A stretch of 64,000 nt of DNA from Candidatus Nanoarchaeia archaeon (GCA_049288015.1 JBAQGX010000003.1:55662-119661), one strand, 5' to 3'; positions 7,181 to 64,000 are shown, numbered from the stretch's first letter. Numbers and translations: made by a program. Notes: generated by a model not told the origin, from the sequence alone.

Positions 7181-7250
7181 CTTAATAAAAATCTCCCATA
7201 TTTTATGTCTATTTGAAATTATATATAAAGGTTTTTATTCCTTATGGATG

Positions 7251-9970: not shown

Positions 9971-10049
9971 ATTCCTAAACTTGGTTATTTCCTTTTAAAG
10001 CTTATGAAATTTAGACATACTTTTAAGTAACTTTTAAAAATAAAATATC

Positions 10050-10835: not shown

Positions 10836-10857
10836 TAAAGTTATCTGTTTTCTTATT

Positions 10858-11910: not shown

Positions 11911-12123
11911 TAGAAACCATATGAGAAATGATTTAAAAACTTTCTGAATTACAAACCTTTAATATAACTCTTCTAGAACTTAAATTCATCTGTAAAATTT
12001 ATCAACTAAGATTGTCATTGCAAGGTCTAAATTTTTTGAAACATACGGATGTAAATTTGATAGCTTATTTTCCTTTTTATTCAACATATTTGGGGTTACA
12101 ATAATTGGATTATTATCTAATTC

Positions 12124-12603: not shown

Positions 12604-12680
12604 TCCTTACTCTATTTTAATTGCTTTAAAAGTTTTATTATGTGTTATTTAACAACCCTTATAAATTGATAATTTGATTA

Positions 12681-15881: not shown

Positions 15882-16020
15882 CTATTATTTGCTCGTAAAT
15901 TTAACTGCAAGCCAATTTTATTGGGAATTTTCCCTTTTTAATGATTTCTGTATGTCTATACTTTGAAGAATTGTTCTTCATAATCTTTTTAAATAATGGA
16001 CGCAACCTATCAACCAGAAG

Positions 16021-18050: not shown

Positions 18051-18099
18051 GGAATTTGGAAAGACTAGTTATTTTTAAGTCTTATGTATCTTAAACACA

Positions 18100-19206
18100 C
18101 TATTTTAATATTTCTAAAATTTTCTTGCTTACTCCACTTTCTCCGTATGGGTTTTTAAAATTTTTAATTTCAACTTTGTTATTTTCTATATCTTCAATAA
18201 TTTTCTTAGCATAGTCTATATCAAATTTTATGAGAAAATTTATTCCGCTTTCAATGCCTTCTTGTCTTTCAGTTCTTTCTCTAAGAATTAAGCAAGGTTT
18301 TCTAAATACTAAACTTTCTTCTTGAATGCTTCCCCCATCCGTAATTAAATACTTGCTATTGGCTAATAAGAAAATAAACTCAAAATAATCAATGAGTGGA
18401 GTAATTTTGATATTTTTCATCTCTTCGATTTCTTTCATCAAGCCATATTTCTCCAAATATTGTCTGGTATTATCATGAAGAGGCCATATTCCTTTTATTT
18501 TTACATTCTTTATGACTTCGACAATACTAATCATCCTTTTCTTATTTACTAAGTTCTCATGTCTATGAATATTTATAAGAACATAATCTTCATCAAGTTT
18601 TTTATACTTTTTTTTAGCTTTATTATATGTAATCTGTGCAGATTCTATAATGGTATTTCCAACATTTACTATTTGCCCTTTCTTTCTTTCTTTTATTAGA
18701 TTGTTTGCAGAAAAATCTGAAACTGCTAGTAGTATATCCGAGTTTCTATCACATATTTTTCGGGAAATTTCTTCGGGAAATGGTTCCCATATGCTACCAC
18801 TTCTTAATCCAGCTTCCAAGTGAACACTTTTCCAAGATTTATTATGATTTAATAATCTGCTGGAAGCTATTGAAGCTGCTGCAGTGCTCATAGTATCTCC
18901 ATGATAAATAACATAACTTGGCTTTAGTTCTCTTATTTTTCTCCTAATTCTAAAAATAGTTTTGATAAACCAAAATAAAGAGCTACTGTTAACTTTTGAC
19001 CAAAATTTTGTACTTTTTTCTGGTTCTATACTAAGAGTAAAATCTGGTCGTTTTATTCCAAATATACTACATGCTTCTCCGAGAGGATGCTGACCTGTAT
19101 GAATAAACCAATATTCTCTCTTCTGTTTTTGTAATTCGAGCATTAAAGGCATACATTTAATCAGTTCTGCTTTAGTGCCTAATATGAATGTTATTTTGTT
19201 TTCCAT
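18100..19206 (-). CDS. wecB: UDP-N-acetylglucosamine 2-epimerase (non-hydrolysing)
   Basis: The HLEAGLRSGS motif is present and the size fits WecB. I moved the start to MENKITFILGTK; the ORF track starts 12 codons earlier at 19242. Confidence 0.8.
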   Translation of the reverse strand: MENKITFILGTKAELIKCMPLMLELQKQKREYWFIHTGQHPLGEACSIFGIKRPDFTLSIEPEKSTKFWSKVNSSSLFWFIKTIFRIRRKIRELKPSYVIYHGDTMSTAAASIASSRLLNHNKSWKSVHLEAGLRSGSIWEPFPEEISRKICDRNSDILLAVSDFSANNLIKERKKGQIVNVGNTIIESAQITYNKAKKKYKKLDEDYVLINIHRHENLVNKKRMISIVEVIKNVKIKGIWPLHDNTRQYLEKYGLMKEIEEMKNIKITPLIDYFEFIFLLANSKYLITDGGSIQEESLVFRKPCLILRERTERQEGIESGINFLIKFDIDYAKKIIEDIENNKVEIKNFKNPYGESGVSKKILEILK

Positions 19207-19213
19207 ATTATTT

Positions 19214-20212
19214 TTATAAAAGATAAGTAAAAACCAGTACAATGATTATTATTAACAACTGGAAGCAATTTATCAAATTTACAACATCATTTTCATAAAC
19301 TTTATGGCTCGGCTTTATTTTTTTCAAAATTTTTATAGATAAATGTTCTAATCCATAAATTTTGTCATATGCAAGATCTAAACTTCCGTCGGGATTTGGC
19401 TTTCCGAAACTATATTTCTTTAGTTTTCCTCTTGCTTTCAAGATTGTTTCAATTATGTATGGTATAAAGAATAATATAGTAATAACTTCCAGATTTCCCA
19501 ATATAGCAATTGCAGCAATCATCATACCAATAGAGTAAGTCATCACATCTCCTGGAAAGACTTTTGCCGGATTTTTATTATAAATATAGAATGCAACTAG
19601 TGATGCTACCATTATCAAAGAAATCAGACTAAGCCAAGTATTTCCACTTAGATATGTTGCCAGCGCAAGTGCGGAAAGAATTAATATTCCTTGCCTTGCT
19701 TCAAGACTATTATAACCAGCCAAAAAATTATATGTTGTGGTTGCTCCGACAACTCCAATCGGAATTATTATTAGAGGATATAATATGCCTAAGCTGATTC
19801 CCATAACAACAGAGTTTCCTGCATTTATTACCATTAAAGGAATTGCGGAGAATAACACTAAAATTAATCTAGATCGAATGGACATCCCGCCCTTTTGCCA
19901 TCCAAATAAGTCATCAACTAAACCAATTCCAGCTACCAAGAAAAGTGAACTTATTATTGCAAATATCTGAATTGTATCTTCTGATGATTTAAAATAAAAT
20001 GTTTGTATTGCAATGTATAAAAAAATACCAATAAGTGTTGCAAGTACAGCAACAATTCCCCCCGAACCTGCAACATTTTTTTCTCTTTTTGGCTTGTTCA
20101 TATCTTCCCAAACCAAGCCGATTTCCTTTGCTTTTCTTATCCAGAAGGGCATAACAATTAAAGTAACAAAAAAACTTACTAAGACTGTCCCCAAAAGCCA
20201 AGGATTTACCAT
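19214..20212 (-). CDS. aglH: GT4-family (MraY/WecA/AglH-like) dolichyl-phosphate GlcNAc-1-phosphate transferase
   Basis: 332 aa with about 10 TM helices. The GLVDDLFG motif is characteristic of polyprenyl-phosphate HexNAc-1-P transferases. Confidence 0.75.
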   Translation of the reverse strand: MVNPWLLGTVLVSFFVTLIVMPFWIRKAKEIGLVWEDMNKPKREKNVAGSGGIVAVLATLIGIFLYIAIQTFYFKSSEDTIQIFAIISSLFLVAGIGLVDDLFGWQKGGMSIRSRLILVLFSAIPLMVINAGNSVVMGISLGILYPLIIIPIGVVGATTTYNFLAGYNSLEARQGILILSALALATYLSGNTWLSLISLIMVASLVAFYIYNKNPAKVFPGDVMTYSIGMMIAAIAILGNLEVITILFFIPYIIETILKARGKLKKYSFGKPNPDGSLDLAYDKIYGLEHLSIKILKKIKPSHKVYENDVVNLINCFQLLIIIIVLVFTYLL

Positions 20213-20277
20213 CGTGTCAGGAATATTTTTTCACTTTTAAGCTTTATGCAAGATATAATCAAATCTTTCAAATATTA

Positions 20278-21141
20278 TCAGCTGAAAAGAATTGGAGTTA
20301 AATATATTTCCATTAAACCTGCTATCACCAATAGTAATATTGATATAAATATCAATATTAAAGTATGTATTGCAATTTTCAAAAACATTTTACTTTTTAT
20401 TCCATGTCTTGCAACTCCAATTCCAAAGATTCCTCCAGCTAAAGCCGCAACAAAGTATGCCGCAATTTCGGGGAAACCATGAATCATATATCTAGCTAAT
20501 CCTAATGGAATCTCCACCCAACTATATTTAGTAAAGATTCCTATGCTTGCAGCTATAACACTTGCATTCCATGCAAGAATAAATATTGCTCCCGCACCGA
20601 ATAGAAGGGAGAATACAAGGGTAAAGACCATAACAAGAAGATTATTTTCCAACACAGAAAAAAATTCTGGTGTACTTGAAGAGCTTACTGCTCCTGTTGC
20701 TACCTGACCTCCAGATATGTACTGAGACATACAACCATTGACATCAGAGGGACTATTTATCGCACAATAAGTTCCAATTTGAGCATTAAGCAAATTACCA
20801 TCTTGAAGAACTATATACCAAAACGAAAAAGCTATTAGGAATCCAAAGAATAACCACATAAATGCATAAATTGCATTCTTATGAATTTTTAAGACTCCAA
20901 AGAATCCATCTACCTTTTCATCTTGTTTTTCTTCTCTTCTAATTATAAAATACATGAAAGGTAGAGAAAACATAACACAAAAAGTTACGACCATAACTCC
21001 AGAATATTTTGACAAAACTGGATCACTTGAAAAAAACCAATGAACTAAAAGTAATGATAAAGAGGCATATATTAAACCGATAAAAAACATTTCCCAAGGC
21101 TTTCTTTCAGCCTTTTTAGGATTTATAATAGATTCAAGCAT
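20278..21141 (-). CDS. SpoIIM/DUF95-family membrane protein
   Basis: 287 aa and polytopic. The conserved HGFPEIAAY (HGxxE) motif of the SpoIIM family is present. Confidence 0.5.
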   Translation of the reverse strand: MLESIINPKKAERKPWEMFFIGLIYASLSLLLVHWFFSSDPVLSKYSGVMVVTFCVMFSLPFMYFIIRREEKQDEKVDGFFGVLKIHKNAIYAFMWLFFGFLIAFSFWYIVLQDGNLLNAQIGTYCAINSPSDVNGCMSQYISGGQVATGAVSSSSTPEFFSVLENNLLVMVFTLVFSLLFGAGAIFILAWNASVIAASIGIFTKYSWVEIPLGLARYMIHGFPEIAAYFVAALAGGIFGIGVARHGIKSKMFLKIAIHTLILIFISILLLVIAGLMEIYLTPILFS

Positions 21142-44780: not shown

Positions 44781-45863
44781 ATGGATGATATTTACGAAAG
44801 TTCTTCTAATGTAAAGGAAATAGATAAGGAACTTGAAGAGTTACTTAAGGCCCAAACAGCGAAAATAAAAGTTATTGGTGTAGGTGGTGGAGGTAATAAT
44901 TCTCTTAATAGAATGAAAGAAATTGGAATTAGGGGAGGAGAACTTATAGCAGTAAATACGGACGCTCAGGATTTATTATATACAAATGCAGATCAAAAGA
45001 TCCTTATTGGTAAGGAGCTTACTCAAGGTCTTGGAGCGGGGAGTAATCCAAGGATAGGAGAAGAATCTGCAAAGGAGTCTGAATCTGAGATAAAAAAGAA
45101 AATTGCGGGAAGTGATATGGTTTTCATAACTTGTGGTATGGGGGGAGGAACAGGAACAGGGGCTGCTCCAGTTATTGCTTCGCTTGCAAAAAAACAGGGA
45201 GCATTAACAATAGGTGTTGTTACTTTACCATTTACTATTGAAGGAAAGAAAAGAATTGAGAATGCAATGGAGGGGTTAGAGAAGATGCAATCTGTTGTTG
45301 ATACTCTGATAATAATTCCGAATGATAAACTTTTAGAATTGGCTCCGGACTTGCCACTTCATACAGCTTTTAAAATTGCGGACGAGATACTTACAAATGC
45401 GGTGAAGGGTGTAACAGAACTTGTAACAACAACAGGATTGGTAAATCTTGATTTTGCAGATATAAAAGCAGTAATGGTTGATGGAGGGGTTTCTCTTATC
45501 GGAATGGGAGAATCAGACTCTGCGGGAAGAAGGGCTGTTGAATCTGTTGAAAAAGCAATTAATAACCCTTTATTAGATGTTGATATTTCTGATGCAACAG
45601 GAGCCTTAGTAAACATTATTGGCGGACCAAATATGAGCCTTGATGAATGTAAAACAATAATTGCAACAGTTGGGGAAAAATTAAGTCCTGATGCAAAATT
45701 AATTTGGGGAGCTCAGATATCTGAAGATATGGATAAATCTATTAGAGTTTTGCTTATTGTTACAGGGGTTAAGAGTTCTCAAATTGTGGGTCATGAAGGT
45801 GCAGATGAAGCTGCAAGACATAAAGAAATCGAAGATGAATTGGGAATTGAATTCATTGAGTAA
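44781..45863 (+). CDS. ftsZ: cell division GTPase FtsZ
   Basis: The motif IKVIGVGGGGNN is present, and the tubulin signature is GGGTGTGAAPVIA. Confidence 0.9.
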   Translation: MDDIYESSSNVKEIDKELEELLKAQTAKIKVIGVGGGGNNSLNRMKEIGIRGGELIAVNTDAQDLLYTNADQKILIGKELTQGLGAGSNPRIGEESAKESESEIKKKIAGSDMVFITCGMGGGTGTGAAPVIASLAKKQGALTIGVVTLPFTIEGKKRIENAMEGLEKMQSVVDTLIIIPNDKLLELAPDLPLHTAFKIADEILTNAVKGVTELVTTTGLVNLDFADIKAVMVDGGVSLIGMGESDSAGRRAVESVEKAINNPLLDVDISDATGALVNIIGGPNMSLDECKTIIATVGEKLSPDAKLIWGAQISEDMDKSIRVLLIVTGVKSSQIVGHEGADEAARHKEIEDELGIEFIE

Positions 45864-46141: not shown

Positions 46142-46396
46142 ATGGTTGATACAATGGTAAATGAGGTAGATAGTTTGGCAAGATTGAAGAAAGAGAGAGA
46201 ATACGAGGATGATTTAGTTTATGACCTAATTAATGTCTTCCTTTTATCACTAAAAGAGATTTCTGATTTAAAACATGAAGAAGAAACTATAGTTAGAGAT
46301 AGATTGACAAAAATTGCATCGGATTCAAAGCGCCATAGTCATTTATTTGAAACTTTAATAGAAATGGTCATAAAAAATGGAGATAATAACTACTAG
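46142..46396 (+). CDS. hypothetical small helical protein
   Basis: 84 aa, predicted all-helical. It overlaps the next ORF by 20 nt in another frame. Confidence 0.35.
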   Translation: MVDTMVNEVDSLARLKKEREYEDDLVYDLINVFLLSLKEISDLKHEEETIVRDRLTKIASDSKRHSHLFETLIEMVIKNGDNNY

Positions 46397-46583
46397 GTCC
46401 CAACTTATAGAAAAATTAAGGGATGTAAAGACTGTTGAAATCATAGCTAGAGAGAATTACAAAGAGGATGCAATAACATTCAAAAATCCTCAAATAGTTA
46501 AGACTGTCTCCCAAATTAAGCTTGATGAAGACAAACATATTGACATGTTAACTGAAATTATTGAATTACTAGAGAAAAATTAA
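46377..46583 (+). CDS. hypothetical small helical protein (weak ferritin-like E...Y / ExxH pattern)
   Basis: 68 aa. EIIARENY and DEDKH motifs are present, but a ferritin-like assignment is speculative. Confidence 0.35.
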   Translation: MEIITTRSQLIEKLRDVKTVEIIARENYKEDAITFKNPQIVKTVSQIKLDEDKHIDMLTEIIELLEKN

Positions 46584-48674: not shown

Positions 48675-48713
48675 TTGCGAAATCTTTATAAACATCAGCC
48701 TTTTCAAAATACT

Positions 48714-49127
48714 ATGGTGTTCGATAAATTGAGGAAAAATCTTTCAAGAGGATCTGCAGGTTCTGATGAGGATTATCTTGAGATAGATTTGAACCAAGGA
48801 ACGAAAGGAGATCATAAAGTAATGGTCAAGCTCTTTGTATTGAAACATTATGATGATGTCAATAAAATTCTTGCATCTTTGAGAGACGGTTATACTATTG
48901 CAATCATTGAAACTAAGATTTTAAGACAAAAAGATCCTATCGAATTGAAGAGGGCTATTTCGAAGATAAAGAAAACGACAGACGCCCTTGAGGGAAGTAT
49001 TGTTGGATTCAGAGAGAATATAGTAATTGCCACACCTTCTTTTGCCAGAGTAGACCGTGAAGCAGAAGTTGTTGTTGATGATAAGAAAATGTCCAACAAG
49101 TTTGATCAAGATCTTTCTTCCATGTAA
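48714..49127 (+). CDS. sepF: cell division protein SepF homologue
   Basis: A SepF/DUF552-like core is present (VMVKLFVLKHYDDVNKILASLRDGYTIAIIE...ALEGSIVGFRENIVIATPSFARV). It follows an N-terminal amphipathic segment. The ATG was chosen at 48714; the ORF track begins at TTG 48675. Confidence 0.55.
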   Translation: MVFDKLRKNLSRGSAGSDEDYLEIDLNQGTKGDHKVMVKLFVLKHYDDVNKILASLRDGYTIAIIETKILRQKDPIELKRAISKIKKTTDALEGSIVGFRENIVIATPSFARVDREAEVVVDDKKMSNKFDQDLSSM

Positions 49128-49229: not shown

Positions 49230-50972
49230 ATGAAATACAAATATTTTAGTATTTTGGCATTAAGTTTAGTCTCGTTTATACTACTAGTCTCTTCAGCAAG
49301 CGCTTTAACAGTATCTACAAATTCACTTTCAGCATTTACAAATCCTGGAGTTTCACAGAACTTATCCGTGTATAATTCACAGCAAGATGTAAATTTTAAT
49401 ACAAATTTTAGTATTGCAAGCCATTTGACTGATTCAAACGGCAATAATTATGACTTTTTAATAAATCCTACAGGCTCTGTTAATAATGTTTCTTCATCCG
49501 GACAAGCAAGTTATAATATAAGTTTAAATCCAAGTATTAGTAGTGGCAGTTTCGTATATGGTAATACATATTCTGAAACCGCACAATTTAATGCAATCAA
49601 CTCTTCGAATTCTTCTATACAGAGCAGCATACCCGTAAATTTAACTTATGTAAAATCTTTTTGCCAGAGTGGGGATTTGAATGATTCAAATATTCAAATG
49701 AATGTTTATGTAACAAATACCGGAAGCGGAACGTCTTCTAGTTCTACAAATTGGAATCCTCTTGATACAATTCAGGTTCAGGTTCAACTTTATAATTATA
49801 ATTCTAACTTCAATTTGAACAATGTAGTATTCAACATCGGTTTATTTCAACAAGGTACAAATAATAACATAATAAATGAAATGAATTGGCAAAGTGGAGG
49901 TAGTAATTCTGTACAAATTGGGGGAATAAGTAGCAATTCAAATGGTCAGTATACATTTACATTTAAGGTTGATCCATCAATATTGTCTAATAATAACGGG
50001 CAGACTAGTTATATTTTAATGGTAGAAGCATACGGAAACCAATTTTGCGTAGATCACTCTACTAGTTTAAGCAGTTATGGGGGATCAATATATTATACAA
50101 ATATTGGCATACAATCCCCAGACTATAACCAAGCTGTTGTTGTTGATATAGGTTCATTACCTCTATCGACGCAAGTATCATGTGGACAACAAGTTACTCT
50201 TACACCAAATATCTATAACTTGGGCTATAACGAAAATTCTTATTCCAAAGGTCAGGTTTTTGTAACAATGTCAATCCCTCAGTTAGGGATTAATGAGAAT
50301 CAAACATTATACGGAGACTTAAATTCGGGAAGCAGTGTACAAGCACCTTTTACATTTGATGTCCCCATAAATGCAGGCCAAACTACATACAATGTATATT
50401 TCAGGACATATTACGGATATAATAGTCAGTATAGTGAACCCTACTTCGGAGATTATCAATATGTTTCTCAGAATACATTTAATACGTTACTAAGTGTTCA
50501 AGGAAATTGTGTTTACGCAACTGCAGCTACAACGCAAATTACTGCACAACTTGAGTCTGGAGGTAAGGCGGGTAGTCCATTAGTTATAAAATCAACAATA
50601 ACTAACACAGGAAACACAACGGTAAGTTATAATTTTGGATTGGAAGAGTATTCATCTTGGGCCTCAGTCTCGGACATCTCTCCTCTTAATATAACTCTTA
50701 CCCCGGGTCAATCACAGGATATTACCGCAAATCTTAGTGTGAATAGTGATGCGAGTGGTGACAAATCATTCTATCTTGATGCTTACTCAAATGGATATCT
50801 AATAACAAAACAGCCTCTTTCAATCTCAATAACTCCTCAATTCAGTTTAGCATCAATAACGGGTGGTGCTATCTCAGGAGATAATTGGTATTTATGGGGA
50901 ATAGGGCTGCTTAATGTTATTCTTATACTATCAATAATTATTATTCTGGTAAAAGTAGGAAAAAAGAAATAG
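49230..50972 (+). CDS. secreted N/S/T-rich surface protein with C-terminal TM anchor and KKK tail
   Basis: 580 aa. A signal peptide (LVSSASA) opens the protein, dozens of N-x-S/T sequons follow, and the C-terminus is ...WYLWGIGLLNVILILSIIIILVKVGKKK. Confidence 0.6.
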   Translation: MKYKYFSILALSLVSFILLVSSASALTVSTNSLSAFTNPGVSQNLSVYNSQQDVNFNTNFSIASHLTDSNGNNYDFLINPTGSVNNVSSSGQASYNISLNPSISSGSFVYGNTYSETAQFNAINSSNSSIQSSIPVNLTYVKSFCQSGDLNDSNIQMNVYVTNTGSGTSSSSTNWNPLDTIQVQVQLYNYNSNFNLNNVVFNIGLFQQGTNNNIINEMNWQSGGSNSVQIGGISSNSNGQYTFTFKVDPSILSNNNGQTSYILMVEAYGNQFCVDHSTSLSSYGGSIYYTNIGIQSPDYNQAVVVDIGSLPLSTQVSCGQQVTLTPNIYNLGYNENSYSKGQVFVTMSIPQLGINENQTLYGDLNSGSSVQAPFTFDVPINAGQTTYNVYFRTYYGYNSQYSEPYFGDYQYVSQNTFNTLLSVQGNCVYATAATTQITAQLESGGKAGSPLVIKSTITNTGNTTVSYNFGLEEYSSWASVSDISPLNITLTPGQSQDITANLSVNSDASGDKSFYLDAYSNGYLITKQPLSISITPQFSLASITGGAISGDNWYLWGIGLLNVILILSIIIILVKVGKKK

Positions 50973-50974
50973 TT

Positions 50975-51595
50975 TTATTTTGATATTTTATCATAAATCT
51001 TTTTAGAAAATTTGTATTTATCTTCTAACTTCAGAAACATAAATCCTATAGAATAACCAATCAAAGCTCCAATTAAAATATCGCTAAAATAATGTAGTCC
51101 CAAATATAATCTAGATAAAGCAACTAATCCAGCAAAAATTATCCAAATATATTTGAATTTAGGATAAAACTTTGACACAAAGGGGATAGTACAGAATATA
51201 AAAGCAGAATCAAAAGAAGGAAAAGAAAAATCCCATGTATGATAAATTATATTGTTTGTAATTCCTGGCAACAATGAAACCATGTTTGTGACAAAAGGTC
51301 TCTGCCTTTGGACTATAACTTTTAGCACAACACTTACCACAGCAGTAACTCCGATACTAAACCATAAAGGTAATATTGCTTTCCTCTTTTTTATACTCCA
51401 AATTAGTAATAAAGTCAAAAATATGACAATAAATATTTCACTATTTAGAAAATTTATTACTAGAAATAATTGATTTAGATAGTAACTCCTAAGAGATGAG
51501 ATAAATTTGATAATTGTATTATCAAAGAAAAGACTTAATACTATTGCGACAGCAATTATCAATAAAACAACAACAAGCCTTTTTTTGTTATACAC
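50975..51595 (-). CDS. PAP2-family lipid phosphate phosphatase (candidate polyprenyl/dolichyl-PP phosphatase)
   Basis: The PAP2 motifs are present: KVIVQRQRP, SFPSFDS and SRLYLGLHYFSD. Confidence 0.7.
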   Translation of the reverse strand: MYNKKRLVVVLLIIAVAIVLSLFFDNTIIKFISSLRSYYLNQLFLVINFLNSEIFIVIFLTLLLIWSIKKRKAILPLWFSIGVTAVVSVVLKVIVQRQRPFVTNMVSLLPGITNNIIYHTWDFSFPSFDSAFIFCTIPFVSKFYPKFKYIWIIFAGLVALSRLYLGLHYFSDILIGALIGYSIGFMFLKLEDKYKFSKKIYDKISK

Positions 51596-51645
51596 TTCTT
51601 CAGTAGAAAAAAACTATTTAAATAGATTTCTCTAGACTAAAACAA

Positions 51646-52182
51646 ATGAAAAAGAGAAAATTAAAATTTAATTTATATGATTTTATTATTAGATATTCTT
51701 TCTTGGTATTAGTTGCAATTCCAAATCTTTGGATTTTTTATACAATATTTACTCCTCTAACTATTTATCCCGTCTACTTAATAACAAAGATTTTTTTTAA
51801 TGTATCTTTATCAAGTAATGTAATCCTGATTAACGGGCACATTCCAATAGATATGATAAATGCATGTATTGCAGGTTCTGCTTATTACCTTCTGCTAGTT
51901 CTTAATATATCAATACCAAAAATTGAGACAAAGGAAAGAGTAAAAATGATTTTATTTTCATTTCTTCTTTTTCTAATTGTTAATATTATAAGAATAGTTA
52001 TACTTATCCTAATCTATATGTCATCAAATTCTTCATTTAATCTTATCCATCAATTATTTTGGTATGGATTAAGTACACTATTTGTATTATTGATCTGGTT
52101 TTTAGAAATTAAAATTTTTAAAGTTAAAGACATCCCAGTATATTCGGATATAAAATCTTTAATAAAATTTATTAAAAAATGA
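51646..52182 (+). CDS. small polytopic membrane protein, candidate exosortase/archaeosortase-family protein
   Basis: 178 aa with about 6 TM helices. A Cys sits in a TM helix (MINACIAGSAYY) and an Arg in a later TM helix (IIRIVIL), resembling archaeosortase catalytic Cys/Arg residues. The assignment rests on pattern recognition only. Confidence 0.35.
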   Translation: MKKRKLKFNLYDFIIRYSFLVLVAIPNLWIFYTIFTPLTIYPVYLITKIFFNVSLSSNVILINGHIPIDMINACIAGSAYYLLLVLNISIPKIETKERVKMILFSFLLFLIVNIIRIVILILIYMSSNSSFNLIHQLFWYGLSTLFVLLIWFLEIKIFKVKDIPVYSDIKSLIKFIKK

Positions 52183-52814
52183 TCGCTATTATTTCAAATA
52201 TTGTATCTTTTATCTTAGGGATAATTGAGAATTGGGGGTATGTAGGAATTTTTGTAGGGATGACTATAGAGAGTTCTTTTTTCCCTCTGCCAAGTGAACT
52301 AATGTTAATCCCTGCAGGGGCTTTGATTTCTCAAGGTAAAATGGAGTTTATTTTAGTTTTCATCTTTGCAATATTTGGCAGTCTTTTTGGAGCTTTAATA
52401 AATTACTTTTTATCTCTATCTCTTGGGAGAAAGGCAATTGAACATTTTGTTTCTAAATATGGAAAAGTATTTTTTATAAGCAGAGAAGAACTAGATGGAA
52501 TAGATCACTATTTTTACAAACACGGAGATATTACCACATTTGTAGGTAGACTTTTGCCAGGGGTAAGACATCTTATCTCAATCCCAGCAGGATTTTCAAA
52601 GATGAATTTGTATAAATTTAGCTTGTTTACTTTAATTGGTGCTGGCTTTTGGAGTTTGATCTTGATCTATGCGGGATGGCTTGCAGATAGAAATGTATCT
52701 TGGATTGCACAACACCTTACATTATTGACAGCAGTTATCATATTAATATGTGCTTTAATAATTTCAAGTTATATCATATTTATGAAGAGAAGAAAAAATA
52801 GAAAAATTAAATGA
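52179..52814 (+). CDS. DedA/TVP38 (SNARE-associated) family membrane protein
   Basis: The DedA motif region is present (GYVGIFVGMTIESSFFPLPSELMLIPAG...GRLLPGVRHLISIPAG). It overlaps the upstream gene by 4 nt. Confidence 0.75.
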   Translation: MIAIISNIVSFILGIIENWGYVGIFVGMTIESSFFPLPSELMLIPAGALISQGKMEFILVFIFAIFGSLFGALINYFLSLSLGRKAIEHFVSKYGKVFFISREELDGIDHYFYKHGDITTFVGRLLPGVRHLISIPAGFSKMNLYKFSLFTLIGAGFWSLILIYAGWLADRNVSWIAQHLTLLTAVIILICALIISSYIIFMKRRKNRKIK

Positions 52815-53549
52815 TTAAGAAACATTAAAAGCCTGATTCAGAGTTGAGAAAGTTTCAGTCATATATCTTTCGGTTGCTGCCAGAATTTGACAATTGTTTA
52901 CATTAATATTATAACATCCAGGAGCTATTTCTTGAATATTTGTCTCATTTGAAGGCACTATATTTAAGTATACATACCTTATCTGAGGATCACAAGTCAT
53001 ATTAGAACTCTTCGTTACATTTATCCCCAAAGCATTTTGATATAAATTAACAAGGTTTGCAACTCCAAGTATACCATCACCATTACAATTAAGCTCACTT
53101 AAATTACTGCTTGAATTTATTACTAAATTTTGTCTTACATACAGACTTCCATTGAAAGGGACTTCTTTATCCAACATTCTTGGATCATAATTAAGATAGA
53201 TATTATATTCTGCATTAGATCCGTTAGACAAAGTCATAGGTATCTTTGTATCATAAAGAGTTTGCCCCTGCTCAATTGTAGTATCCACAATATATCTCAC
53301 CCCATCAACAGTAAAACTTTTTGAAGTATTTGATAGCAAAAGAATGAAGATGAATACTCCAACGAGTAATCCTATTATTACCAAAGTTATTAGAAGTATC
53401 TTACTTTCAGAAGCAATCTGTTTTTGACTAGGATGTTCCTTTTTATCTTCAACTTCTTCTGCTTTTTCGATATTATCTTCTATACTTTCTTCAATAGCTT
53501 CAATTTCTTTTTCTTTCTTATTACTCTTTGTTTTCTTGTTGGTTTTCAT
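52815..53549 (-). CDS. type-II (N-terminally anchored) surface protein, Asn/Cys-rich ectodomain
   Basis: 244 aa. A charged K/E N-terminus is followed by a single TM (LLITLVIIGLLVGVFIFILL) and an ectodomain with sequons and paired Cys. Confidence 0.5.
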   Translation of the reverse strand: MKTNKKTKSNKKEKEIEAIEESIEDNIEKAEEVEDKKEHPSQKQIASESKILLITLVIIGLLVGVFIFILLLSNTSKSFTVDGVRYIVDTTIEQGQTLYDTKIPMTLSNGSNAEYNIYLNYDPRMLDKEVPFNGSLYVRQNLVINSSSNLSELNCNGDGILGVANLVNLYQNALGINVTKSSNMTCDPQIRYVYLNIVPSNETNIQEIAPGCYNINVNNCQILAATERYMTETFSTLNQAFNVS

Positions 53550-54145
53550 TGTCTAATTCCAAATATTTTAAATAAAACATTGTCAACAGTCTTTATTAAA
53601 TCTTGTCCTTGTCCGTAAATATAAATACAGTTTTGTACTTGCATCACGCTCTGCTGTCCGCTGTTAATTATTATAAAATTGTTACTACAGTTTATATTCT
53701 GAGCAATTGTTTGGTTACACTGCATCCCGGCAGGGCAGGCATCTATTATTGAAGTGTTAAAAGAATATAGGTTTGATCTGACCTCAGACTCTGCATTCGA
53801 ATCGTCAGAATAAATATACAAAATTTTATTCGAAAAATCACCTAAGGTTTTTGTTATATTTGTTAAGTCCTGAGAGGAGATCTGTGAAGGATTGTAAGTA
53901 AAAACTAAGGTATTACCATTGTAATTTGAATACCAAAAACCGTTTTGGTTTAAAAAATTGATTCCGTTATAACTTATAGATTGTGTCGAATTAATGTTTG
54001 ATACATTATTATTTCCGGTAAGGTAATTCTGAAATGCATAGCCTAGGACACTTATTAGCATGACTCCTATTAGAATTATGCTTATTAAAAACTGATTTCT
54101 CTTCTTTTTTTTATCTTTTTCATACTTTGAAATAATCTTTCGCAT
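53546..54145 (-). CDS. type-II (N-terminally anchored) surface protein, Asn/Gln-rich ectodomain
   Basis: 199 aa. A basic N-terminus is followed by a single TM and an ectodomain with Cys pairs. It overlaps the downstream gene by 4 nt. Confidence 0.5.
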   Translation of the reverse strand: MRKIISKYEKDKKKKRNQFLISIILIGVMLISVLGYAFQNYLTGNNNVSNINSTQSISYNGINFLNQNGFWYSNYNGNTLVFTYNPSQISSQDLTNITKTLGDFSNKILYIYSDDSNAESEVRSNLYSFNTSIIDACPAGMQCNQTIAQNINCSNNFIIINSGQQSVMQVQNCIYIYGQGQDLIKTVDNVLFKIFGIRQ

Positions 54146-57884: not shown

Positions 57885-58379
57885 CTAAGAATAGGCACTG
57901 AATATAATACGCACAGAAGTTCCTCCCTTTGAAAGAGGCTGCGAGTTTCCTTGCGAATTGCTAGTTATATTACCTTCTTTTACCGAAAAGATTTCTCCTG
58001 TACTTGAACTAATATTCATAATATACCCCTTTATTGAGCTTCCCTGCCCTACAATCCAAGTTTGATTTAAAATTCCCCTTAGAGTTGAATTTAGTATTTG
58101 ACAACTATTTATAGAAGGGTTATTTGTCCGATCTAAACAATTAGTTCCTGAACCGCACATAAAGATTAGATCTCTTACCGAAATATATCCATAATAATTT
58201 TGACATTGTGTGCTTGTTTGTAGAGTTGAAGTTACAAAACTCTCGGCCTCATAGCTTTGGACAGTTTGATTTCCGGAACTATTCAGAAAAAATCCTAAAA
58301 ACACAAGCAAAATTATAGATACGATTATTATAATCAGTGCAAATCCAATCATTTCTTCCTGAGCTCTTTTATTTTTCAT
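57885..58379 (-). CDS. prepilin-like protein with class III signal peptide
   Basis: The start was chosen at MKNKRAQEEMIGFALIIIIVSIIL, forming an ATGA overlap with the upstream stop. The ORF track starts at 58418. Confidence 0.55.
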   Translation of the reverse strand: MKNKRAQEEMIGFALIIIIVSIILLVFLGFFLNSSGNQTVQSYEAESFVTSTLQTSTQCQNYYGYISVRDLIFMCGSGTNCLDRTNNPSINSCQILNSTLRGILNQTWIVGQGSSIKGYIMNISSSTGEIFSVKEGNITSNSQGNSQPLSKGGTSVRIIFSAYS

Positions 58380-58897
58380 GTTCCTTGGTATGTTACAATT
58401 ATTTTTGCAAGATTGCATTCTATAGATCCATTAATTGAATATCCACATAAAGAAACAATGTTTGAAGTTCCTGTTCCGTTGTTTGTTGGTATTAATGTTA
58501 TTTTATTACAATTTGGAAAATTTGAGATAGTACACTCGACATTATCTGTTTGCGGATATACGGTTCTTATTTGAATACCTTGAACTCCCCAGAAAGTTCC
58601 GTTGCCATATATTTTCAAATTATTCTCCAAACTTATAACTTTGTCCACATCAATGCACGAGCTCATTCCAGTTCCAAAATAGTTACTAAAACTATCCCCA
58701 CATGAAAACTCGGGAGAATCTGAAATCTTTGAAACTAAAAGTTGAGCATTATCTTGCTGTAAGACTGATGCTTTTTGTTTTAGCCCATTTACTGAAGTAA
58801 CCAGGACAAACATTCCCGCCAGGACAAAGAATAATGTTACCGCAATAAGCATAAAAGTCATCTGTTGGATTTTCAATTGACCTTTTTTTGTTTTCAT
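58376..58897 (-). CDS. prepilin-like protein with class III signal peptide
   Basis: The start was chosen at MKTKKGQLKIQQMTFMLIAVTLFFVL. The ORF-track start at 58933 would overlap the upstream gene by 35 nt. Confidence 0.55.
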   Translation of the reverse strand: MKTKKGQLKIQQMTFMLIAVTLFFVLAGMFVLVTSVNGLKQKASVLQQDNAQLLVSKISDSPEFSCGDSFSNYFGTGMSSCIDVDKVISLENNLKIYGNGTFWGVQGIQIRTVYPQTDNVECTISNFPNCNKITLIPTNNGTGTSNIVSLCGYSINGSIECNLAKIIVTYQGT

Positions 58898-58898
58898 T

Positions 58899-59825
58899 TT
58901 ACCAAAGTTTGCATGTTGAAGCATCATTTTCATTTTGAAGTTGACTTGTAAGAGGTATTAGGTTGATCATGTCTTGAGAATTTTGGAATGAGTTTAACAT
59001 CGAGTTTAATTGCATAAGATCTGGATTAGGAGTACATGACTGGATTGCATTAGATTTTTCAATATACAATGAGGAGAGCTCTGCATCTCTTTCCATTAAT
59101 CTTTTTAATTGACATTCATAAATACTGCTATCTGAGAAAATAGCGCCATACATTAAGGCGTCACCATAAAAGTTTAATGTGCTCCCATTTTTTGTTACCT
59201 CTTCTCTAGTGTAATCAACATTGATATCGCAATTGCTTCCAGAGAAGCAAACTTTTATGCTATTCTGGGGACAGTTTGTTGTATCATTGGTTAATCTGAT
59301 ATTGCCTTCGTTAAGATTTGACAATTCTTCCTGTATACTCTGAGGAGAATTAACAAAACAATAATCTACAGAAGATGAGGTCATATATATTAAATCAGAA
59401 ACTTCAAAAGGAAAACTAAATGGCTTTGAAAAAAGATAAAATTGTCTTCCGTCAGAAACATTATCCGAAAAAATGTATTTATCTCCAAATGTTACTCCGT
59501 TAGTTTGAGGAGACCATTTCCCTAAGCTTAACTGTGATAAGCTAAGTATTTGCAATCCAAAAGTCCCACTAAAATTTTCACATTGATTGTATATTCTTGT
59601 TTCCACTGGCAAACTTATTGAAGTAATCTGTCCTGATTGGAAACTTGTTTGAAGAGGATTAAGAAGGGCCGCAATTTCACTTCCTGCCTCAGCAGTAGTT
59701 GAAGATTGTCCAATATTCATTATTCTTGTTACCGTAAAAATTGCAATTGCAAGAATAATAGCACCTGCAATAATTCCAAACAGCCAGGCAAATGAAATTT
59801 CTAAAAATCCTCTTTTATTCTTCAT
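58899..59825 (-). CDS. prepilin-like protein with class III signal peptide (larger, 308 aa)
   Basis: It starts MKNKRGFLEISFAWLFGIIAGAIILAIAIF, with a KRG cleavage-site context and a hydrophobic N-terminal helix. Confidence 0.6.
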   Translation of the reverse strand: MKNKRGFLEISFAWLFGIIAGAIILAIAIFTVTRIMNIGQSSTTAEAGSEIAALLNPLQTSFQSGQITSISLPVETRIYNQCENFSGTFGLQILSLSQLSLGKWSPQTNGVTFGDKYIFSDNVSDGRQFYLFSKPFSFPFEVSDLIYMTSSSVDYCFVNSPQSIQEELSNLNEGNIRLTNDTTNCPQNSIKVCFSGSNCDINVDYTREEVTKNGSTLNFYGDALMYGAIFSDSSIYECQLKRLMERDAELSSLYIEKSNAIQSCTPNPDLMQLNSMLNSFQNSQDMINLIPLTSQLQNENDASTCKLW

Positions 59826-59828
59826 TTT

Positions 59829-60260
59829 CTAATGTACTGTTACTAATGTGTCTCCAAAATTTTTCTGAAGAATTAGATTCACATTGCCATTCACTACAGG
59901 GAAGCATGAATTACTACTTGAAGTTATTGCGCTTATATTAAGATTTTCTATGTTTCCTCCGGGAGCACTATATCCGTTAGCACCATTGAGAACAACATCG
60001 TCTCCATTCGTATTAACAAAACAAACTTCTTTTATTGAACTAGGAAGACTGTAAGATTTTGTTTGGCTTGACTGATCAGAATTCCATACTACGTTGACAT
60101 CTTTCTGAAGATTGTCCGAGAATTGGCTTATTTTTACGCTATCTTGCAAACCCAAGAACTTTTGTATCACAAAAAAAGCAAATCCTATAAAGACAATTAT
60201 GAGCACTATGGAGAAAATCATACCAAACGAAAGCTGGATCTGCCCCCTTTTGTTTCTCAT
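59829..60260 (-). CDS. prepilin-like protein with class III signal peptide
   Basis: It starts MRNKRGQIQLSFGMIFSIVLIIVF, resembling euryarchaeal type IV pilins of the RGQ-ISLEF type. Confidence 0.6.
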   Translation of the reverse strand: MRNKRGQIQLSFGMIFSIVLIIVFIGFAFFVIQKFLGLQDSVKISQFSDNLQKDVNVVWNSDQSSQTKSYSLPSSIKEVCFVNTNGDDVVLNGANGYSAPGGNIENLNISAITSSSNSCFPVVNGNVNLILQKNFGDTLVTVH

Positions 60261-60292
60261 TCAATAAATAAATTAAATAAGCTTATAAATTT

Positions 60293-62740
60293 TTAGAAAT
60301 TAATTGAAGAAGGATTTAATATAATACTACATGCATTCTGAGGCTGATTTCCAAATTGGTCTTCACACTTTATATAATAAGTCTGATCAGAAACCCATCC
60401 AGTGCTATGAGTTATATTGTCAAGAGTTGTCAATGGAATTCCTTGACTGAATGGATATGTACAATCGACAATATCATAAACACAGTTCCCTGCTCTATCT
60501 GTTTCTATATTTAATGTGTTTGTTCCTGAGTCATGATAAGCTCTTACAACATTTGGAGGAGTCGTAATTGACTGTACATTAAAGTTTATACTAGAATAAT
60601 CCGCGTCTCCTGCAAAGTCGACACACTTTAAATAGTAAGTATAATTGCCAGGAGTAAGCCATAAATCCTGTGTGCTCTGATAAGAAGTAGTATTTGAGAA
60701 CTGCATATAGGTACTCTCATCAGGATTAGTGCTATAATAACATGTGGAACTTCCGGAATTATATCCTCCTGAAGTCTGAAGGTTCAGTGTAACATCAATA
60801 TTTGTCGTTGATCCTGTAATCGTTGTCTGATTAGGGCTTGCGGAAGTAATAGACAACTGACTGCTTGATCCTGATAAGACAAAAGGATAAGACTGCTGAT
60901 TTATATTGCCATTAGTGTCGTTACATCTGAAGTAGAAATTACTTGTAGCTCCATTAACTATTCCAGTAAGATTTGCAATACAAGAGAATAATCCTAATGG
61001 AGTTGGAGCAGCACGACAGGACATATTGTTTGGCATACTTTGATAGCTTTGGTCTGTGTGACTCCATCTACATCCGGTAACTTGCTTATTTATGAAAACA
61101 GAAACATCGGTTGAAAATGTTCCAAAGGATATTGGAGTTCCTGTTGCAGGCGATGTAGATACAATACTTGGGGGAGTTACATCTGGAGTCTGATCTGCAT
61201 TGAATTGTATAACATATGCTCCTGTATCAGAAGCATTGTTTACATTGTTACATCTTATGTAATAATCTGTCTGCCCACTTTGTTGTACACTTAAACTAGT
61301 TCCAGTTTGATTCTTGAAAACGGGAATTTCAAAGGTGTGATTATATGTTCCATCAGGATTCCTTATACCCCATGTACCTTCATTTCCATTTATTCCGCCG
61401 TCCGTTCCAATCAAGAAACCTGTTGCAGTCATGTTAGCATAAGAATTTCCCCTTATAGGACTAACCATACACTGGGCTGCTTGATCAGTCTGTATCCCAA
61501 GAGATAGTATAGTATAAGGAGATATGTTTGGAGTTATCAAAACTCCCGTATCTCCAGGATATGAAGGAGCAGGCATAGGCTTGTAGTTAAGGGTATTTCC
61601 ATTAGATAAAGATAATACATTTCCCAAGAAAGTTATAACAGGTTGTGGTGCATTTTGATTTGTTGCAATACAAATTGGTTGCCCATTTTGTCCTGCATTT
61701 ATTAGTTCACATGCTGTTCCTAAACTTGCACATTCATATGCTGTACAAGTTAGTCCATTCTTTCCACATTTGCTGCAATCACTTCCACCATAAGGTGCTT
61801 GCCAAGGAACACATTGAATGACAACAGCATCATCTTTTGTATCTTGTGAAAATATTAAATAAGCTGCGACTACAATTATAGCTGTTGTTCCTCCCACTAT
61901 CCATCCTAAAGGTCCAGCAGCAACTGTACCTATTCCTGCAGGGAATATTTCTGCAGCAAGAACTCCAGTGAATGTTCCTGCAGTAAAGGCTAATTGCGCC
62001 CCTGTAAGAATAGAATCCCATGTGCTTCCCGGAGCTGCATTAACCCAAAGCTTGATGAGTGAAATTACTCCCAAAACTGCTACCGCTGCACCGGCTGCCA
62101 CACCAATTGCTATGGTGAGTGCCCAAACTCCTCCCCAAAGAGTTTGCCCAGTAAATAAAGTTGTTAGTGGTGCTGCTGCAGTTGCTGTTCCTGCAGGTAA
62201 TCCTGATGCAGACCCAGAGAGATAGGCACTAGCGGGCAATCCATTTGTTGTTGCTGGGGGTACATAGGGGGTTGTAGCTGCTGCAGGTAATCCCGTTGTT
62301 TCACTTCCAGACAATGATGTGGCTCCTGGTGATGATACAGGTGTACGGGCCGGAGCTCCTCCCGGGAGATATCTAGATCCAGATGAAGCAAGGGATCCCA
62401 CCTGCGATATTTCAGATAATACACTAGATATCTGTGTGGATAATCCTGCTGTAGATGAAGGAGGAGGGCTTGATGGTGCTGCACTAGGAGGAGTCGTTGC
62501 TGCAGGAGGTGAAGGTAAAGTATTTTCTGTAGTAGTACAATATCCAGTACCAGCACTAACTATATAGCAAAATTCACCCGTTGAACATCCTGAACTATCG
62601 TGACAAGCATTGCCTACGACAGCAGAAACTACACCAACTTCGCTTCCGATAGCATAAGAAACTGAAACAATTCCAATTAGTAATATTAAAATCTGGCTCA
62701 AGGCCATTCCCACCGATTTCTTATAAAATATTTTTTTCAT
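60293..62740 (-). CDS. large polytopic Cys-rich surface protein with mucin-like P/S/T/A linker
   Basis: 815 aa. The layout is an N-terminal anchor, a small Cys knot, an approximately 150-aa P/S/T/A low-complexity linker, 3 TM helices and a roughly 500-aa Cys/Asn-rich C-terminal ectodomain. Confidence 0.55.
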   Translation of the reverse strand: MKKIFYKKSVGMALSQILILLIGIVSVSYAIGSEVGVVSAVVGNACHDSSGCSTGEFCYIVSAGTGYCTTTENTLPSPPAATTPPSAAPSSPPPSSTAGLSTQISSVLSEISQVGSLASSGSRYLPGGAPARTPVSSPGATSLSGSETTGLPAAATTPYVPPATTNGLPASAYLSGSASGLPAGTATAAAPLTTLFTGQTLWGGVWALTIAIGVAAGAAVAVLGVISLIKLWVNAAPGSTWDSILTGAQLAFTAGTFTGVLAAEIFPAGIGTVAAGPLGWIVGGTTAIIVVAAYLIFSQDTKDDAVVIQCVPWQAPYGGSDCSKCGKNGLTCTAYECASLGTACELINAGQNGQPICIATNQNAPQPVITFLGNVLSLSNGNTLNYKPMPAPSYPGDTGVLITPNISPYTILSLGIQTDQAAQCMVSPIRGNSYANMTATGFLIGTDGGINGNEGTWGIRNPDGTYNHTFEIPVFKNQTGTSLSVQQSGQTDYYIRCNNVNNASDTGAYVIQFNADQTPDVTPPSIVSTSPATGTPISFGTFSTDVSVFINKQVTGCRWSHTDQSYQSMPNNMSCRAAPTPLGLFSCIANLTGIVNGATSNFYFRCNDTNGNINQQSYPFVLSGSSSQLSITSASPNQTTITGSTTNIDVTLNLQTSGGYNSGSSTCYYSTNPDESTYMQFSNTTSYQSTQDLWLTPGNYTYYLKCVDFAGDADYSSINFNVQSITTPPNVVRAYHDSGTNTLNIETDRAGNCVYDIVDCTYPFSQGIPLTTLDNITHSTGWVSDQTYYIKCEDQFGNQPQNACSIILNPSSINF

Positions 62741-64000
62741 TTAGCCATAAGAGGGTTTCCCCAAAAGTATTTTGAATAAATCATTCATTCCATTTGTTCC
62801 ACTAGTCCCAATATAATTCACGCTTACACCGCAATCTCCGATAGAAGAACAGATATTAGATACACTTGATGCCCATGGTTGTGATAAACTCTCACCATTA
62901 TCTAAACAAACAACATCATTTGCAGGTGAAATAGCCCAAGGAGCGTTGAATATGCTTGCTCCTTTACTTCTCGTATAATTCTCGTAACAAACCATACTCC
63001 CCATAAAACACAAATCCTTTGCACTTGGGCCTTGTATATTCAAATTGCCTGAAGAGCTTAGTAGTCCATTTACAGAAATATCAAATCCAGGAGTATACTT
63101 CGGAACACATGAAGCTCCAGGTCTTGGATCTAGTGCTCTTGATGTATCATCTTGTCTTGGAACTAAGATATCATTTACACTGTCATAAACATAAGGTAAT
63201 CCCGTTGAATTATCTTTTAAGATGCTATACCCAATAATCCATTGACAATCTCTTGTAGTATTATCCAAACAAGACTTACTGCTGTTTTGATAATAACAAT
63301 CTTGCCATCTGTTCAAAGTAAGATAAGAACTGAAGTACCCATTTGAAGTTTCATTTTGGACACATACTTTCTGTCTGGCATCATATGTTTCTGTTGTGAT
63401 TTCTCCATTCTGACATATGAATAAAGTATCAACATTTCCAGGTAAATCTAAAGATTTGTTAAAAGTCACTGTATCAGGAAGGGTGTAACTTACAGAACCA
63501 GTACCAAAACCATTATTCCCGCTTCCGCTTTGTCCTGGCGTCGAAGATGAACTTGAACCAGGATCTCCTCCGAACACAAGATTCCCGTTAGACTCTGTTC
63601 CACACCAACTTTCTCCATTAACGGGATATTGAAGAATTTGATTTGACTGTCTTTGAGTTCCGTAAGTTTGAACAAATTGTGGGACAAAGGTCCCGCTCTT
63701 GCAATTTAAATCTCTGCATATGTAATCTCCAATTGCAGGCTTACTACTATCTATTGTTGGATCATATTTCATGCATGTGCTTCCAGCAAGATAATTACAA
63801 TTACCATTACTTGCAGATTCTACATCTCCAGCATTATCGCTATCTGGAGCTGATGCTACTAAATAATCCCAATAACTTTCATTAGTATACTGCTTCTGAT
63901 CATATATGTTAGCAGTGTTTCCGCAGCTATCGATATAGAATATCTGATCTGAGGCAGATGAACAAGTCGTTTCTTGCGTCTTTACACAATTTGTTCCTAG
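62741..64000 (-). CDS. Cys-rich secreted protein, 5'-partial (N-terminus outside window)
   Basis: The frame is open to the window edge; the ORF-track M at 63772 is internal. It has more than 25 Cys, sequons and a G/S-rich linker. Its stop abuts the start of the 815-aa gene. Confidence 0.5.
   Translation of the reverse strand, partial: LGTNCVKTQETTCSSASDQIFYIDSCGNTANIYDQKQYTNESYWDYLVASAPDSDNAGDVESASNGNCNYLAGSTCMKYDPTIDSSKPAIGDYICRDLNCKSGTFVPQFVQTYGTQRQSNQILQYPVNGESWCGTESNGNLVFGGDPGSSSSSTPGQSGSGNNGFGTGSVSYTLPDTVTFNKSLDLPGNVDTLFICQNGEITTETYDARQKVCVQNETSNGYFSSYLTLNRWQDCYYQNSSKSCLDNTTRDCQWIIGYSILKDNSTGLPYVYDSVNDILVPRQDDTSRALDPRPGASCVPKYTPGFDISVNGLLSSSGNLNIQGPSAKDLCFMGSMVCYENYTRSKGASIFNAPWAISPANDVVCLDNGESLSQPWASSVSNICSSIGDCGVSVNYIGTSGTNGMNDLFKILLGKPSYG

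Follow-up and report, generated by a model that had tools for sequence, protein, structure and literature searches.

We analyzed a window of 64,000 nucleotides from Candidatus Nanoarchaeia archaeon (GCA_049288015.1, JBAQGX010000003.1:55662-119661), which encodes a small archaeosortase, termed pacearchaeosortase, and, two genes upstream of it, a surface protein of the PACE-CTERM family. Between the two genes a PAP2-family phosphatase is encoded on the opposite strand, and the sortase gene is followed by a gene for a DedA-family membrane protein. An initial annotation, made from the raw sequence alone, had placed these four open reading frames (ORFs) at the positions where we find them (Table 1), and it correctly recognized an archaeosortase and its substrate. 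The enzyme-substrate pair is already catalogued by NCBI, thus the find is correct and not new. No paper on "pacearchaeosortase" or "PACE-CTERM" is present in the searchable literature, so the system is annotated and apparently unstudied. Here, we define the sorting signal as an explicit motif, provide evidence that the substrates form a single family and describe an extended conserved neighborhood. The residual novelty lies in the alternating association with DedA or PF06695 genes and in the experimental simplicity of the system.

The pacearchaeosortase and its PACE-CTERM substrate

The 178 amino acid (aa) protein matches the hidden Markov model (HMM) NF033505 ("pacearchaeosortase") with 207.1 bits (cutoff 80, E 1.8e-61) over nearly its full length, residues 11-176 being aligned to profile positions 2-166 of 167. 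It also exceeds the cutoff of the exosortase/archaeosortase signature TIGR04178 (32.3 bits, cutoff 23, E 9.3e-8, residues 72-152). A protein with the identical sequence is present in NCBI as "pacearchaeosortase [Candidatus Nanoarchaeia archaeon]". The NF033505 match and the identical NCBI protein confirm the inferred sortase and show that its family is already curated. The initial annotation had pointed to a cysteine within NACIAGS and an arginine within IIRIVIL as active site candidates. These residues, both in membrane helices, are Cys74 (codon 51865-51867) and Arg116 (codon 51991-51993), and together with His135 (codon 52048-52050) they are invariant in an alignment of 27 sortase homologues with 51-69% identity. 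Further invariant positions in this alignment are R16/Y17, a TPLT motif, N87, R98, N113 and a C-terminal P-x-YSD. Judged by this conservation, Cys74, Arg116 and His135 are candidate catalytic residues of the enzyme.

The AlphaFold model of the sortase (predicted local distance difference test (pLDDT) 82.8, predicted template modelling score (pTM) 0.75) contains six helices, as many as the transmembrane (TM) helices counted initially, plus a small beta-hairpin (residues 53-69). The numbers of lysines and arginines in consecutive loops (5, 0, 4, 0 and 7), however, show a positive-inside pattern that fits about four spans, and six is probably an over-count. The protein probably consists of approximately four membrane spans, preceded by an interfacial helix at the N-terminus and followed by an amphipathic one at the C-terminus. 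Its topology would be N-in/C-in with the loops 50-70 and 122-134 outside, and according to the loop charge pattern C74, R116 and H135 would therefore be located toward the outer face, where the juxtamembrane motif of the substrate lies.

Among the known archaeosortases, ArtE (TIGR04124) aligns with the sortase over nearly the full length (residues 11-158 to profile positions 6-151 of 153, E 1.5e-7), and the TIGR04178 region is common to ArtE, ArtD and the small exosortases XrtM, XrtX and XrtH. The profiles of these five families have similar lengths (150-170 positions), hence the small size, which had been described as minimal, has precedent. The scores against ArtE (31.6 bits, cutoff 95) and ArtD (TIGR04175; 20.5 bits, cutoff 125) are far below the cutoffs; the pacearchaeosortase is thus a distinct subfamily that has a cognate signal of its own. 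None of the matches at E <= 1 was to an ArtA model.

The 580 aa protein matches NF033506 ("PACE-CTERM-PROT, putative S-layer protein") with 310.9 bits (cutoff 110, E 2e-92), residues 57-579 being aligned to profile positions 135-627 of 627. Since this family is the catalogued cognate target of the enzyme, the assignment as sorting substrate, originally made from a terminal TM helix followed by KKK, is upheld. Both proteins of the window score far above the cutoffs of their families over nearly full length, and nothing sets them apart from these families. The AlphaFold model of the substrate (pLDDT 77.5) shows a helix at residues 3-23, an all-beta body, a low-confidence linker (536-552) and a second helix (553-578); the protein thus comprises a signal peptide (approximately aa 1-25), several beta-sandwich domains in a chain, a flexible linker and a TM helix followed by the KKK tail. 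A fold search in the PDB returned generic immunoglobulin-like multi-domain matches only (TM-score approximately 0.15) and no specific relative from surface layers (S-layers). The protein had been described as rich in N-glycosylation sites, which is true for the absolute count of 12 N-X-S/T sequons but not in relation to its composition, from which 15.7 ± 3.3 sequons are expected.

The C-terminus of the substrate consists of WYLWGIGLLNVILILSIIIILV followed by KVGKKK, and its final residues read PQFSLASITGGAISGDNWYLWGIGLLNVILILSIIIILVKVGKKK. From 72 orthologues we derived the signal consensus [SG]-[IL]-T-G-x(4-7)-[DG]-N-W-Y-L-W-G-[IL]-G-x-L-N, followed by a hydrophobic run and R-x-x-[RK]. The individual columns are conserved to different degrees: T in 57/70, G in 66/70, N in 55/72, W in 64/72 and the second G in 63/72 orthologues; the intramembrane Asn is found in 60 and the first basic residue in all of the 72 proteins. 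Mean pairwise identity is 0.43 for the last 42 residues vs 0.30 for the remaining protein, and the signal is among the best-conserved parts of the substrate. In the AlphaFold model it is located in the low-confidence linker immediately before the TM helix. As noted initially, the C-terminus contains neither PGF nor PEF, and a PQF lies upstream of the helix. The distance of this tripeptide (residues 536-538) to the helix is approximately 15-17 aa instead of the 20 aa reported, and its columns are not conserved in the orthologues; PQF was therefore rejected as sorting tripeptide. The motif that could guide experiments is T-G, then N-W-Y-L-W-G, then the intramembrane Asn.

The enzyme is encoded in 310 species of the GTDB. 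For the neighborhood analyses 80 species-level sortase loci were retrieved, and sortase and substrate are neighbors in nearly all of those in which adjacency is assessable. The loci stem overwhelmingly from metagenome-assembled genomes of Pacearchaeota, Woesearchaeota or Nanoarchaeota. Four contigs deposited as bacterial (L017, L024, L040 and L074; Patescibacteria, Omnitrophota, Vicingus and Collierbacteria) are probably mis-binned Pacearchaeota. In 69 of the 80 loci the substrate gene is located directly upstream of the sortase gene, with or without the PAP2 gene in between. Where upstream sequence is usable in the other loci, the deviation is due to an assembly gap (L076), to rearrangement (L043, L072) or to two divergent tandem paralogues (L079). 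In L079, a single divergent lineage, two substrate paralogues of 689 and 682 aa are encoded upstream of the sortase (5556-9730), and they carry the variant C-terminal signal DWNWKIIFNIILG... with a long K-rich tail.

In the loci (1.02 Mb) and the window, a signal-only HMM detected no carrier outside the substrate family, and within the window the substrate is the only ORF that combines a C-terminal helix and such a basic tail with a match to the signal profile. An exhaustive search with the signal profile in 1.84 billion cluster representatives yielded 539 clusters, the best 150 of which all match at the extreme C-terminus. Of these 150, 86 signal-bearing representatives were scanned, and every one matches NF033506. 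After removal of the last 60 residues, 136 of 137 testable top representatives still match a profile of the ectodomain only; the remaining one looks like a chimeric ORF call. A search of the signal-only profile against a word-indexed database of 5.8 billion proteins gave no useful information, the matches being limited to 12 short fragments. Taken together, the pacearchaeosortase most likely serves one dedicated substrate family. The initial annotation had expected further proteins of the proteome to end in the same signal. No second carrier family was found in the loci or the window, and for a dedicated one-substrate system such a comparison within a proteome is not applicable; the signal is judged real because it is conserved across species. 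Since one enzyme is strictly paired with one substrate, this is an unusually simple archaeosortase system for heterologous reconstitution and for addressing the identity of the nucleophile.

Table 1. Genes and sequence elements at the pacearchaeosortase locus (positions counted from the first nucleotide of the window).
Feature	Position	Strand	Basis
SepF homologue, directly upstream of the substrate gene; context, outside the sorting system	48675..49127	+	PF04472, 33.7 bits
PACE-CTERM protein (sortase substrate), 580 aa	49230..50972	+	NF033506 match, AlphaFold layout
Tripartite C-terminal sorting signal, aa 539-580	50844..50969	+	SLAS-ITG-GAISG-DNWYLWGIGLLN, then hydrophobic helix, then KVGKKK
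PAP2-family phosphatase, 206 aa, GTG start, optional neighbor	50975..51595	-	PF01569 match
Palindromic TATTTAAATA, candidate archaeal TATA box	51615..51624	.	Read from sequence
Pacearchaeosortase, 178 aa	51646..52182	+	NF033505 match, identical protein in NCBI, invariant C/R/H
DedA/VTT-domain membrane protein, 211 aa, optional neighbor	52179..52814	+	PF09335 match
p244, N-terminally anchored surface protein, last gene of the convergent operon in the window	52815..53549	-	In 69/80 loci by the sortase
p199, N-terminally anchored surface protein	53546..54145	-	In 67/80 loci
p941, large secreted protein with S_layer_C-like C-terminal domain, 941 aa	54277..57102	-	PF05124 in orthologues; in 54/80 loci

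PAP2, DedA and PF06695 genes next to the sortase

The product of the PAP2-like gene reported on the other side of the sortase matches PF01569 (69 bits, gathering score 27.2). The gene is convergent with the substrate gene, leaving a gap of 2 nt, and in 38/69 loci a PAP2 gene separates substrate and sortase. The three catalytic motifs C1 (KX6RP), C2 (PSGH) and C3 (SRX5HX3D) were scored in 40 orthologues, and C1 (K92, R99, P100) and C3 (S161, R162, H168, D172) are invariant in all of them. With phosphatases of the SepP and BcrC/PgpB type the protein of the window thus shares PF01569 and invariant C1 and C3 motifs including the nucleophilic His, whereas it is far below every equivalog cutoff (best match SepP, 39.7 vs 250 bits) and its C2 His is replaced. 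The C2 His position varies among the orthologues (Q16, H14, D9, R1), and the window copy contains D129 (PSFD); this subfamily has an atypical C2 motif, while C1 and C3 are intact. The element TATTTAAATA is located approximately 25 nt from the GTG of the PAP2 gene (51595) and likewise from the ATG of the sortase gene (51646), and from its sequence and position it is a candidate promoter element for the divergent PAP2 and sortase transcripts.

The assignment of the downstream protein to the DedA family was confirmed (PF09335, 74.5 bits, gathering score 33.9), and so was the overlap of 4 nt with the sortase gene (ATGA at 52179-52182). The best NCBIfam match is UptA (NF052604) with 121 bits; since this is well below the equivalog cutoff of 250, a lipid substrate is not assignable. 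DedA occupies the slot downstream of the sortase in 33/68 loci, and in 28 of 35 pairs the DedA gene overlaps the sortase stop codon or lies within 1 nt of it. In 21/68 loci, all without DedA, the slot contains a PF06695 (Sm_multidrug_ex) protein (159 aa, 110 bits), encoded on the opposite strand between sortase and p244 (for instance in L008, L010, L012, L013, L015 and L024). The PF06695 gene is located within a few nucleotides of the end of p244 and is therefore the last gene of the p941-p199-p244 operon, which is convergent with the sortase genes. DedA and PF06695 never occur together in the slot. PF06695 was reported to be a distant member of the DedA superfamily in two published analyses. 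A DedA-superfamily gene thus ends one of two convergent envelope operons in 54/68 loci, and never both. Roles of DedA-family proteins as lipid flippases are documented (PMC11474028, PMC12893004, PMC10193950): UptA is a flippase for undecaprenyl phosphate (C55-P), and PetA sets the transbilayer distribution of phosphatidylethanolamine (PMC10193950).

The window also encodes a glycan biosynthesis cluster (approximately 4375-21141) with a PF00953 polyprenyl-phosphate sugar-1-phosphate transferase (19214-20212). The cluster further comprises a UDP-GlcNAc 2-epimerase, several GT1/GT4 transferases, NAD-epimerases, a DegT aminotransferase and methyltransferases. Genes for an ATP sulfurylase (7760-9970), an adenosine phosphosulfate (APS) kinase (7251-7763) and a sulfotransferase (10050-10835) suggest that the surface glycan is sulfated. 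This polyprenyl-linked glycan cluster provides some context for a recycling of lipid carriers. We infer that PAP2 and the DedA-superfamily proteins are accessory, non-obligatory lipid-handling proteins that most likely recycle the polyprenyl-(pyro)phosphate carrier for surface protein glycosylation. The initial annotation had gone further and combined the four genes into an envelope anchoring and dolichyl phosphate (Dol-P) recycling unit. PAP2 and DedA are optional, and their occurrence is uncorrelated (see below), therefore they do not form a fixed unit. The coupling of DedA to the sortase stop codon, the replacement by PF06695 and the glycan cluster agree with the idea. As a recycling unit the locus is plausibly but weakly supported, and the claim was overstated. 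The recurrent, alternating link to two branches of the DedA superfamily, together with PAP2, bears on lipid supply and recycling in archaeosortase pathways.

Proposed mechanism and alternative explanations

We consider it highly probable that the locus encodes a dedicated archaeosortase system of Pacearchaeota-type DPANN archaea with accessory lipid genes. The substrate would be exported via Sec by its N-terminal signal peptide and transiently be retained in the membrane by the C-terminal helix, while its KKK tail stays on the cytoplasmic side. At the outer membrane face the pacearchaeosortase would recognize the juxtamembrane motif ITG...DNWYLWGIG..N. Cys74, helped by Arg116 and probably His135, would attack a peptide bond within the flexible linker or close to it, which would free the segment of helix and KKK and form a thioester acyl-enzyme. 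This intermediate would be resolved by a nucleophile, and the example of Haloferax ArtA suggests a membrane lipid with an amine group as the most likely one. The mature substrate would then be attached to the cell surface through a lipid and lie below the S-layer or inside it.

The proposal follows the model for ArtA, which involves a thioester and a lipid amine, and ArtA also provides the precedent for synteny with lipid genes (PssA/PssD) (PMC7157517). In Haloferax volcanii ArtA the residues Cys173, Arg214 and Arg253 are critical (PMC9263693); the spacing between Cys and Arg is 41 there and 42 in the pacearchaeosortase. Both systems share the superfamily signature, a surface glycoprotein whose signal combines a motif with a TM helix and a basic tail (PGF-CTERM proteins such as the S-layer glycoprotein in the case of ArtA) and genomic links to lipid-handling genes. 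In contrast, ArtA has many substrates with a PGF motif, while one family lacking this motif is served here, and the genomic partners are PssA/PssD for ArtA but PAP2 and DedA/PF06695 for the pacearchaeosortase. Bacterial sortase A (LPXTG) and rhombosortase (GlyGly-CTERM) act in an analogous way, removing a motif-helix-basic-tail segment and transferring the protein to an acceptor in the envelope (PMC9263693, PMC7157517), but they are not homologous to the pacearchaeosortase, and their folds and motifs differ.

Several points weigh against this explanation. We observe that enzyme and substrate belong to their families, that certain residues are invariant and the signal is conserved, and that the genes are paired one-to-one in a syntenic arrangement; the cleavage itself, its site and the lipidation are adopted purely by analogy, and we infer the nucleophile and the roles of the neighboring genes. 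His135 has no demonstrated counterpart in ArtA, where the third critical residue is Arg253. PDB searches gave no exosortase-family structure and no solved fold resembling the sortase. The host organisms are uncultivated, and the family is absent from the searchable literature. With respect to the lipid genes, roughly half of the loci lack PAP2 and roughly half lack DedA, and the presence of the two is uncorrelated (17 loci with both, 18 with PAP2 only, 11 with DedA only and 14 with neither; Fisher p = 0.80), thus PAP2 and DedA were rejected as a co-inherited pair. The slot contains neither DedA nor PF06695 in 14/68 loci, and a comparison of DedA and PF06695 with hhalign, using shallow alignments built from the loci, detected no homology (probability 1.3%). 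Moreover, the conserved gene order extends over SecE, Spt5, L11, L37ae, prefoldin and SepF, which makes adjacency alone weak evidence for functional coupling.

The patchy occurrence of PAP2 and DedA, the loci with an empty slot and the synteny running through unrelated ribosomal, transcription and division genes are also expected if enzyme and substrate act as described and PAP2 and DedA/PF06695 are general membrane-lipid housekeeping genes in a variable slot of a conserved segment. Consistent with this, the state of the slot changes frequently on the sortase tree (at least 23 changes vs a shuffled mean of 29; the tree is noisy). On the other hand, DedA is found at or within 1 nt of the sortase stop codon in most pairs, the slot holds either DedA or PF06695 but never the two together, a distant relationship between these families was reported, the PF06695 gene is joined to the end of the convergent envelope operon, and ArtA is a precedent for synteny with lipid-pathway genes. 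We regard such a housekeeping role as a serious possibility with a chance somewhat below even. If, instead, the DedA/PF06695 transporter, be it a canonical DedA joined to the sortase operon or a PF06695 protein joined to the convergent S-layer operon, is a dedicated accessory of the sortase and together with PAP2 supplies or recycles the outer-leaflet lipid for anchoring the single substrate, this would be the first module to combine a flippase with a sortase, and PF06695 would gain a functional context; we consider this unlikely. The same low probability applies to a version in which the DedA-superfamily protein flips the lipid nucleophile itself, such as an archaeal lipid of the ethanolamine type, to the outer leaflet as the site of acyl-enzyme resolution, and PAP2 trims a lipid head group; such a role is distinct from a recycling of the glycosylation carrier. 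The ArtA model does require an amine lipid at the outer face (PMC7157517), PetA of the DedA family controls how phosphatidylethanolamine is distributed across the bilayer (PMC10193950), and the DedA gene is tightly coupled to the sortase gene. Yet the best DedA match, although below the cutoff, is the C55-P transporter UptA, the DedA gene is absent from many loci, and PssA/PssD-like genes were not seen near the locus. In addition, lipid biosynthesis is generally reduced in DPANN archaea.

Bacterial sortases transfer proteins to non-lipid acceptors, and the pacearchaeosortase might similarly cleave its substrate without lipidating it, either shedding the ectodomain or transferring it to p941 or a glycan and thereby joining the substrate to the S-layer. 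The p941 protein lacks a membrane anchor, and its gene belongs to the conserved convergent operon, which speaks for such a reaction, but the only archaeosortase studied yields a lipid attachment, and we regard a reaction of this kind as improbable. Least likely is that the C-terminal helix serves as a permanent anchor, the sortase-like protein being inactive or directed at another target. Cys, Arg and His are invariant across a deep divergence, T-G, N-W-Y-L-W-G and the intramembrane Asn are conserved beyond the needs of a plain hydrophobic anchor, and enzyme and substrate are strictly paired one-to-one in adjacent positions; all three observations argue against a mere anchor.

Envelope and division genes in the wider neighborhood

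The conserved gene order is SecE, Spt5, L11, L37ae, prefoldin, SepF, substrate, (PAP2), sortase and (DedA), followed by p244, p199 and p941 on the opposite strand. In NCBIfam/Pfam-type profile scans p244 and p199 have no family match. Both proteins contain Cys, and their genes overlap by 4 nt and are co-oriented with p941; p244 contains 9 sequons vs 4.1 expected. The two proteins were rejected as paralogues, since similarity between them is undetectable.

The C-termini of 19/19 p941 orthologues match PF05124 (S_layer_C) at E <= 0.01 (best 1.2e-8); the window copy reaches 19.3 bits, below the gathering score of 23.9, and has no Pfam match above threshold. The C-terminal domain contains the invariant motif GGSC-N..AA...G...C, and the protein carries 26 sequons vs 18.4 expected. 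Having a signal peptide and no membrane anchor, p941 is the likelier lattice protein; it is probably the lattice-forming S-layer protein of this lineage, and the PACE-CTERM protein may be its anchored partner. The locus also outlines a compact DPANN envelope gene set: besides the PACE-CTERM protein, which is anchored, it comprises the S_layer_C-like protein without anchor and the two small anchored proteins.

SepF is followed by the substrate gene in 49 loci. The genes for FtsZ (44781-45863, +) and SepF (48675-49127, +) flank the SecE-Spt5-L11 block in the window; the proximity of FtsZ and SepF parallels the midcell localization of ArtA and of S-layer insertion in Haloferax and may be mere conservation of gene order. 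Downstream of p941, five consecutive ORFs (177, 185, 308, 815 and 343 aa; 57885-63772, -) match no Pfam family at E <= 0.001, and the 815 aa ORF was for lack of a Pfam match rejected as an oligosaccharyltransferase. SecE and Spt5/NusG are normally adjacent. In the window two small overlapping ORFs (84 and 68 aa; 46142-46583, +) without Pfam match are located between them, and among the 80 loci this ORF pair is found only in the closest relative (L001).

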